From the NCBI RefSeq assembly GCF_003334335.1, contig NZ_QOWQ01000028.1: a stretch of DNA of 64,000 nucleotides, one strand, 5' to 3'. Origin of the DNA: Escherichia coli (GTDB taxonomy: Bacteria; Pseudomonadota; Gammaproteobacteria; Enterobacterales; Enterobacteriaceae). The notes beneath the pieces were generated by a model. The model saw nothing but the letters and a program-made list of their open reading frames with translations, had not been told where the DNA came from and did not search any database. The translations under genes were made by a program, and so were the position numbers. Shown in pieces: positions 38,057 through 38,540 of this stretch (position 1 is the stretch's first letter; each line of letters opens with the position of its first letter).

Positions 38057-38540
38057 GTATAGTTATTCTTATTTCCCTTCTTTTAGAGCTGGCTTGTTAA
38101 AAGCCAGCTTGCAGATTCATCGTTCCATCACCAGTACTATATTCAAGGGAAAATTGCTATTTTTCTTAAAGCATTAAGCACAACCCTTATTTTATAGCGA
38201 ATATTCCTAAAGACACTAATGGATGCAAAAGGGGTTTAATAAACTTCGATTTTTAGCAATTAGTGCTATTCTTTGTTAAATATGATGATGATAATTTTCC
38301 TATTGAAAGAAACAGTTTTCTTATTAAGCAACAATAACTCATAGTTCATATTTAAATAAAATAAGAACTATGCAATTTTTAATCTATCAATTCGAAAGCA
38401 TTAGCAAATTAGCCAAATTGACACCTTCCCACCTCCAACTAACACTCAATACAGACCTCTGACAATTTAATAAGTTTCATTTTTAATGTCTGACGACTCA
38501 TCTCTTTCGTGGCTGTATTGTTTGTATATGGAGCGTTTAT

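Follow-up and report, generated by a model that had tools for sequence, protein, structure and literature searches.

AT-rich, H-NS-bound DNA upstream of the cryptic autotransporter gene yneO of Escherichia coli: a probable two-layer regulatory region containing a MarA box

Genomic setting of the lsrK–yneO spacer

The DNA analyzed here (64,000 nt in total, hereafter "the window") is from Escherichia coli and is nearly identical to K-12. The gene order in the relevant part is lsrA (on the minus strand), lsrR, lsrK (36418–38010), the yneO frame from 38541, and then hipBA, and this lsrA–hipBA segment runs in the opposite orientation to that of MG1655. The spacer between lsrK and yneO differs from its MG1655 counterpart (NC_000913.3, 1598087–1598616) by a single mismatch, at base 38138. 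Most of the spacer is taken up by the 484-bp stretch 38057–38540, which extends from just past the lsrK terminator to the base preceding the yneO ATG at 38541. No RefSeq annotation lies inside the spacer, either in K-12 or among the matches listed from 4,215 complete E. coli genomes. The spacer was present (at least 80% of its length, with 93–100% identity) in approximately 4,000 of 5,426 complete E. coli genomes (74%), and in other E. coli genomes it adjoins an often intact gene of 1806 aa. The features of the locus are as follows.

38011–38540: lsrK–yneO spacer, 530 bp
38015–38050 (hairpin) and 38051–38054 (U run), plus strand: lsrK intrinsic terminator, just left of 38057–38540
38086–38110, plus strand: second G+C-rich hairpin, AGCTGGCTT-gttaa-AAGCCAGCT, −16.5 kcal/mol, 35 nt past the lsrK terminator
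38110–38454, no strand: promoter island 1596197_345, AT-rich H-NS-bound core, GC 29–30%; coordinates converted from U00096.2, to within about ±2 bp
38251–38269, minus strand: MarA/SoxS/Rob box ATAGCACTAATTGCTAAAA, one mismatch to the marbox consensus AYnGCACnnWnnRYYAAAY
38340–38372, no strand: inverted repeat CATAGTTCATATTT / AAATAAGAACTATG, fold of −10.4 kcal/mol, z −5.4
38411–38540, plus strand: conserved proximal block
38459–38487, plus strand: predicted sigma70 promoter, −35 CTGACA at 38459–38464, 17-bp spacer, −10 TTTAAT at 38482–38487; published string (PMC3946193) placed by direct reading
38530–38533, plus strand: Shine-Dalgarno sequence GGAG, 7 nt before the yneO ATG at 38541, found by direct reading and invariant in 8 strains
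38541–43960, plus strand: yneO, an autotransporter gene of the ECSE_1600 family (AIDA-I type), in ORFs of 1302 and 516 aa

Some strains that retain both the spacer and an intact autotransporter gene have a degraded lsr operon (locus L004, 4026–6111; locus L003, 1704–3238). JMK_KBN3987 lacks lsrR and lsrA and has truncated copies of lsrK and lsrC, and in CE10, lsrA is frameshifted.

The split autotransporter gene

The two yneO ORFs match the NCBIfam family NF011422 at profile positions 1–1281 (2890 bits) and 1291–1806 (1229 bits) of 1806, so that the full-length family profile is covered across two ORFs of a gene split by a frameshift. The initial annotation had taken the downstream gene to be an autotransporter pseudogene, and yneO is indeed a frameshifted member of the ECSE_1600 family (NF011422), of which an intact 1806-aa allele exists. 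In the window, the frame is lost through a −1 slip at the poly-G tract 42371–42377, which reads G7 here and G8 in the intact allele of locus L011. Two such tracts, at 42371–42377 and 42494–42500 (approximately 120 bp apart), carry inactivating lesions. Their lengths are G7/G7 in the window, G8/G8 in MG1655, and G8/G7 in L011, the last of these keeping the frame; therefore, the window and K-12 copies were broken by different single-base slips. In the intact alleles of L004 and L006, the first tract is interrupted and the second is G6. In an evolution experiment, single-base indels were reported in ydeK close to these positions (PMC6427688), and the poly-G changes in yneO look like slipped-strand on/off switching.

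When 100,044 species representatives were scanned for relatives of yneO, only two loci were found (L011 and L012), both 92–98% identical to the E. coli gene. Their records are titled "Candidatus Nanosynbacter sp." (a MAG) and "Marinomonas sp. SBI8L," respectively, and L011 also holds the lsrK–yneO spacer at 98% identity. Both are probably E. coli contamination in those assemblies, and the comparison of the upstream region was therefore confined to E. coli.

Base composition, DNA shape, and hairpins

The initial annotation had described the roughly 480 bp before yneO as strongly AT-rich, and the composition bears this out. The GC content of 38057–38540 is 31.2%, against 47.5% for the whole window, and is as low in only 0.05% of all 484-bp windows; the minimum among these, 30.6%, starts at 38046. 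The stretch is thus about the lowest of its length in the window, with an A+T content far over the genome average across at least 300 bp.

The same description had mentioned runs of A/T and short direct repeats, neither of which exceeds what the composition predicts. Runs of at least four A/T number 12 in the stretch, against 8.9 ± 2.6 in shuffles, and exact direct repeats reach a length of 9 nt, where shuffles give 8.9 ± 1.0. The count of repeated 8-mers is likewise within the shuffle expectation, the best direct-repeat family consists of two 19-nt copies with 79% identity, and the 21-mer quoted as an example, ttaaataaaataagaactatg, occurs once in the window (at 38352). Direct repeats were therefore rejected as a feature of this DNA. 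The quoted 21-mer corresponds to the loop and 3′ arm of the inverted repeat 38340–38353 / 38359–38372. A hairpin at least as stable as this one was found in 51% of dinucleotide-shuffled regions; the inverted repeat is probably due to chance, and a terminator or attenuator at 38340–38372 was rejected as not above chance.

In contrast to these counts, AAA/TTT triplets recur in the region with a period of 10–11 bp, more strongly than in 500 of 500 shuffles, a non-random feature absent from the initial annotation. In a wedge-model path, curvature peaked in a 126-bp segment (approximately 38341–38467) that ranked at the 1.6th percentile of the window, although the predicted curvature is only moderate. 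The stretch can be placed among DNAs with intrinsic curvature or phased A-tracts.

Two hairpins at the lsrK end exceed expectation. The RNA of the lsrK terminator folds at −17.4 kcal/mol (z −4.3), which none of 200 shuffles equaled, and its stem is invariant in 8 strains. A consensus terminator scan missed this structure (38015–38054), probably because it lies outside the stem and loop criteria of the scan. The second hairpin, 38086–38110, is more stable than the best hairpin in each of 150 dinucleotide shuffles of the region, and no U tail follows it on either strand. Its stem is kept in most other strains, with one C-to-T change that still pairs as G-U, and one pair is lost in strain 3150. 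This hairpin is possibly an RNA-stabilizing or backup structure of the lsrK 3′ end.

Predicted promoter and binding of H-NS and RNA polymerase

Among the 78 "promoter islands" of K-12, a class described by Shavkunov, Panyukov, and Ozoline, the spacer is listed as 1596197_345 ydeK/lsrK beside a predicted foreign gene (Panyukov and Ozoline, PMC3661553), and it carries the H-NS code "A," meaning that it was bound in all ChIP studies compared (PMC3661553 Table 1). A genomic SELEX peak for the RpoD holoenzyme also lies in the spacer, where an H-NS SELEX site is marked (Shimada et al., PMC3946193), and a peak for the RpoS holoenzyme has been reported there as well (PMC5493296). The initial annotation had suggested that regions of this kind often hold silenced adhesin promoters and had pointed to H-NS ChIP data as a check; the published binding of H-NS and of the RpoD and RpoS holoenzymes to this very spacer agrees with that suggestion, whereas the direct repeats offered alongside it are not real.

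The best promoter given for yneO is CTGACA-17-TTTAAT (PMC3946193 Table 2). In the strains aligned here, this element was invariant in all 8 save for one spacer base, and a stricter consensus promoter scan did not pick it up. Transcription from it would start near 38494 and give a 5′ UTR of approximately 46 nt. The converted center of the SELEX peak, at approximately 38121, falls at the lsrK end of the spacer, far from the predicted promoter; the resolution of SELEX arrays is coarse. High-affinity nucleation by H-NS is associated with the motif tCGwTwAATT. When this motif was searched with at most one mismatch, 28 matches were found in the window and none in 38011–38540.

The excess of promoter-like sites on both strands that is expected of a promoter island was not reproduced by counting hexamers. 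A simple −35/−10 hexamer scan found 7 promoter-like sites in the 345 bp of the island, which is the 77th percentile of the window and a deficit relative to composition-matched shuffles (16.9 ± 5.3), and the promoter scan of a separate tool returned 0 sites against 2.7 expected. The class was defined by the PlatProm analysis of its authors and our counts are of plain hexamers; because the hexamer scans show no excess, the label "promoter island" depends on that algorithm. Elsewhere in the window, further AT-rich blocks (28–35% GC; 3200–3650, 11730–12140, 52440–53170, 53620–53850, and 57130–57470) hold up to 26 hexamer promoter-like sites per 345 bp, compared with the 7 in the yneO spacer.

In the papers searched, neither a mapped transcription start nor an expression value in an hns mutant was found for the yneO/ydeK promoter, and the locus is unmentioned in Higashi 2016, Fuqua and Wagner 2024, and Purtov 2020. 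On a microarray, ydeK was increased 2.2-fold by CpxR overproduction (PMC2731931), indicating that the gene can be transcribed. No credible CpxR box was found in the spacer. A single one-mismatch site lies at 38634, inside the coding start, and one-mismatch sites are only slightly more numerous in the window than in shuffles.

Conservation across strains

Strains were chosen to span the identity range of the BLAST hits, with 8 in the spacer alignment and 7 of these in the rate counts. The proportions of variable columns were as follows.

AT-rich core (38111–38410): 15.0%
lsrK third codon positions: 13.2%
yneO third codon positions: 14.6%
Conserved proximal block (38411–38540, plus strand): 3.8% (5 of 130 columns among 7 strains)

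The core did not differ from the lsrK third codon positions (p 0.53), whereas the proximal block was more conserved than both the core (Fisher p 0.0005) and the lsrK third positions (p 0.002). These column counts indicate that the proximal block is under purifying selection. Because the core varies at the synonymous rate and yet stays AT-rich, only its composition seems to matter. The split into a drifting AT-rich platform and a conserved 130-bp promoter block, which fits H-NS platforms selected for composition rather than sequence, does not appear in the initial annotation, and neither does the MarA box described below.

A MarA box inside the AT-rich core

The box at 38251–38269 points away from yneO (the "backward" orientation), and its center, at 38260, lies approximately 281 bp before the ATG. 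The only match of the same quality elsewhere in the window is the marbox of the marRAB promoter, ATGCCACGTTTTGCTAAAT, at 17587–17605 on the plus strand; the mar locus itself is thus about 21 kb from a spacer to which MarA binds. Chance alone would give about two marbox-like matches in 64 kb.

In ETEC H10407, the ChIP-seq site of the stress regulator MarA that was assigned to yneO is gcactaattgctaaa, which binds purified MarA at 0.3 µM, the strongest in vitro class (Sharma et al., PMC5684230 Table 1). This sequence is the 15-nt core of the 38251–38269 match, read on the minus strand. Two variants of the box occur among the strains: one alters an "n" position, and the other gives gcattaattgctaaa, which is identical to the grxA/ybjC site.

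With respect to the predicted start near 38494, the center of the box lies approximately 235 bp upstream. A marbox that activates a sigma70 promoter is reportedly centered near −42 in the forward orientation, or −52 to −72 in the backward one, as Martin et al. are said to have described in 1999. A −10 hexamer (with A2 and T6) paired with a −35 hexamer at a class I or class II offset from the box was sought on both strands, and none was found. Because the box is too far away and lacks suitable hexamers, MarA is unlikely to activate the proximal promoter directly in the class I or class II manner.

Interpretation of the spacer

Taken together, these results make it probable that the stretch regulates the cryptic autotransporter gene yneO from upstream and is arranged in two layers: a proximal promoter block and an AT-rich H-NS platform. 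In the proposed arrangement, the proximal block (38411–38540) would contain CTGACA-17-TTTAAT as the functional core promoter, followed by a short 5′ UTR (about 46 nt) with the ribosome-binding site, and selection would keep the block near-invariant. The AT-rich core (38111–38410; about 29–30% GC, with phased A/T triplets and moderate predicted curvature) would serve as the binding platform for H-NS. From the core, H-NS would spread across the promoter and keep yneO silent under laboratory conditions. The MarA box, if active, would most likely loosen this silencing or serve a weak distal promoter. The composition, the periodicity, the conservation pattern, and the marbox match were computed here, and the binding of H-NS, RNA polymerase, and MarA has been published; the transcription start, the silencing of yneO by H-NS, and any effect of MarA on its transcription are inferred.

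The initial annotation had called the stretch a long leader. That word implies a transcript, and a true long 5′ leader would require a promoter farther upstream, such as one close to the MarA box, that places 200–300 nt of mRNA before the ATG, with attenuation, RNA structure, or a small upstream ORF as the regulator. Such a transcript would account for the MarA box, which at 281 bp from the ATG must serve something, and the inverted repeat at 38340–38372, followed by CAATTTTT, could resemble a weak terminator. Furthermore, a 30-codon ORF (38370–38462) and a 20-codon ORF overlapping the yneO start (38486–38548) are intact in 8 of 8 strains. However, these ORFs lack Shine-Dalgarno sequences and the amino acid changes in the 30-codon ORF are about as frequent as the silent ones; small proteins encoded by the 20–30-codon ORFs were therefore rejected, as the ORFs have no ribosome-binding sites and their changes are not clearly biased toward silent ones. 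The 38340–38372 hairpin does not exceed chance expectation for its composition, no usable −10/−35 pair stands at a class I or class II distance from the marbox, and the greater part of the supposed leader changes as fast as synonymous positions do. A permissive cmscan over 37500–39000 returned only noise, with no Rfam family near its threshold (the best scores, 10–21 bits, were far under the gathering thresholds). In other words, neither an RNA family nor an above-chance structure that would indicate a structured leader, riboswitch, or attenuator was found downstream of the hairpin at 38086–38110. Given these negative results and a predicted promoter that would give a 5′ UTR of only about 46 nt, the term "leader" is unsupported, and we consider a long leader very unlikely.

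It is also conceivable that the AT-rich core is functionless, i.e., a neutral spacer left from the acquisition of the autotransporter gene, in which the binding of H-NS, RNA polymerase, and MarA is incidental and has no effect on yneO. The evolution of the core at the synonymous rate would be expected in this case, as would a marbox-like match at a frequency of about two per 64 kb. Many MarA and RNA polymerase sites are tied to no known promoter, with 15 of 33 MarA peaks lying near a sigma70 peak (PMC5684230). Insertion sequences occur in the spacer of several strains at no obvious cost, and the gene is a pseudogene in K-12, the window, and O157:H7. Against this, the AT content and the 10–11-bp phasing are maintained despite the drift in sequence, both natural marbox variants preserve a competent box, and silenced genes are typically organized in just this way, with H-NS bound next to a conserved promoter (summarized in PMC3946193). 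A functionless core is thus quite unlikely, and a promoter block silenced from an H-NS platform is the reading that we favor.

Within this two-layer reading, MarA bound in the middle of the H-NS platform might act as a counter-silencer or drive an unmapped distal promoter, so that antibiotic or salicylate stress would switch on the adhesin in strains where the gene is intact, with poly-G slippage as a second, heritable on/off layer. This extension is speculative and, on balance, rather doubtful. If true, it would link the mar resistance regulon to surface adhesion. With a validated MarA site in the platform, beyond the classical activation distance, the locus is also well suited to testing whether a small activator of the AraC family can act by counter-silencing.

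Comparison with known systems

The closest known element is the promoter island 1596197_345 ydeK/lsrK itself, which is the same DNA bar the one MG1655 mismatch: AT-rich, H-NS-bound, bound by RNA polymerase in vitro, and located beside a predicted foreign gene. Unlike the promoter-island class as defined by PlatProm, the yneO spacer shows no excess of promoter-like sites by a plain hexamer count. The yfaL/ypaB and ycgV/ychF islands (PMC3661553 table), examples of H-NS-silenced regions before cryptic K-12 autotransporter and fimbrial genes, are likewise AT-rich, H-NS-occupied spacers before laboratory-silent adhesin-type genes. In contrast to the yfaL and ycgV regions, the yneO spacer embeds a high-affinity MarA box, and yneO is inactivated by poly-G slippage in K-12 and the window.

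The yneO marbox resembles that of marRAB in being near consensus, equally "backward," and bound by MarA in vivo and in vitro (PMC5684230). It differs from the boxes of class I (marRAB) and class II (micF and fumC) promoters, which lie at −42 to −72, in standing approximately 235 bp upstream of the predicted start. The AIDA-I-type autotransporter adhesin gene agn43 (flu) is likewise preceded by a long regulatory region. The agn43 gene is a phase-variable autotransporter switch controlled by Dam and OxyR. No GATC was found in 38011–38540, and therefore a methylation switch of the agn43 type, governed by Dam and OxyR, is excluded for the yneO spacer.

The element was already catalogued and its protein binding had been published genome-wide; what this analysis adds, in a small way, is the split in conservation and the position of the MarA box. 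The region represents textbook AT-rich, H-NS-occupied upstream DNA of a horizontally acquired, laboratory-silent adhesin gene, and as such matters little beyond bookkeeping.

Insertion sequences in the spacer

Insertion sequences were observed inside the spacer of other strains (locus L006, 6496–7692; locus L005, 6001–6105; and BLAST hit H1). In GMM076, whose gene is intact, an IS5 element at TTAG 38401–38404 separates the AT-rich core from the conserved promoter. The spacer of LR-71-1 contains an inserted IS1, and EC102 combines IS1 with a deletion of lsr genes. A 104-bp match in EC102 that stands under another "autotransporter" annotation was considered as a second copy of the region and rejected, as it is the same locus after the IS1-linked deletion. 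Insertions in this spacer fit the behavior of H-NS-bound DNA as a transposon target. As a speculation, the IS5 at 38401–38404 could relieve silencing, as IS5 does at bgl. Further spacer breakpoints lie near 38292 and 38455 (hits H69 and H68).
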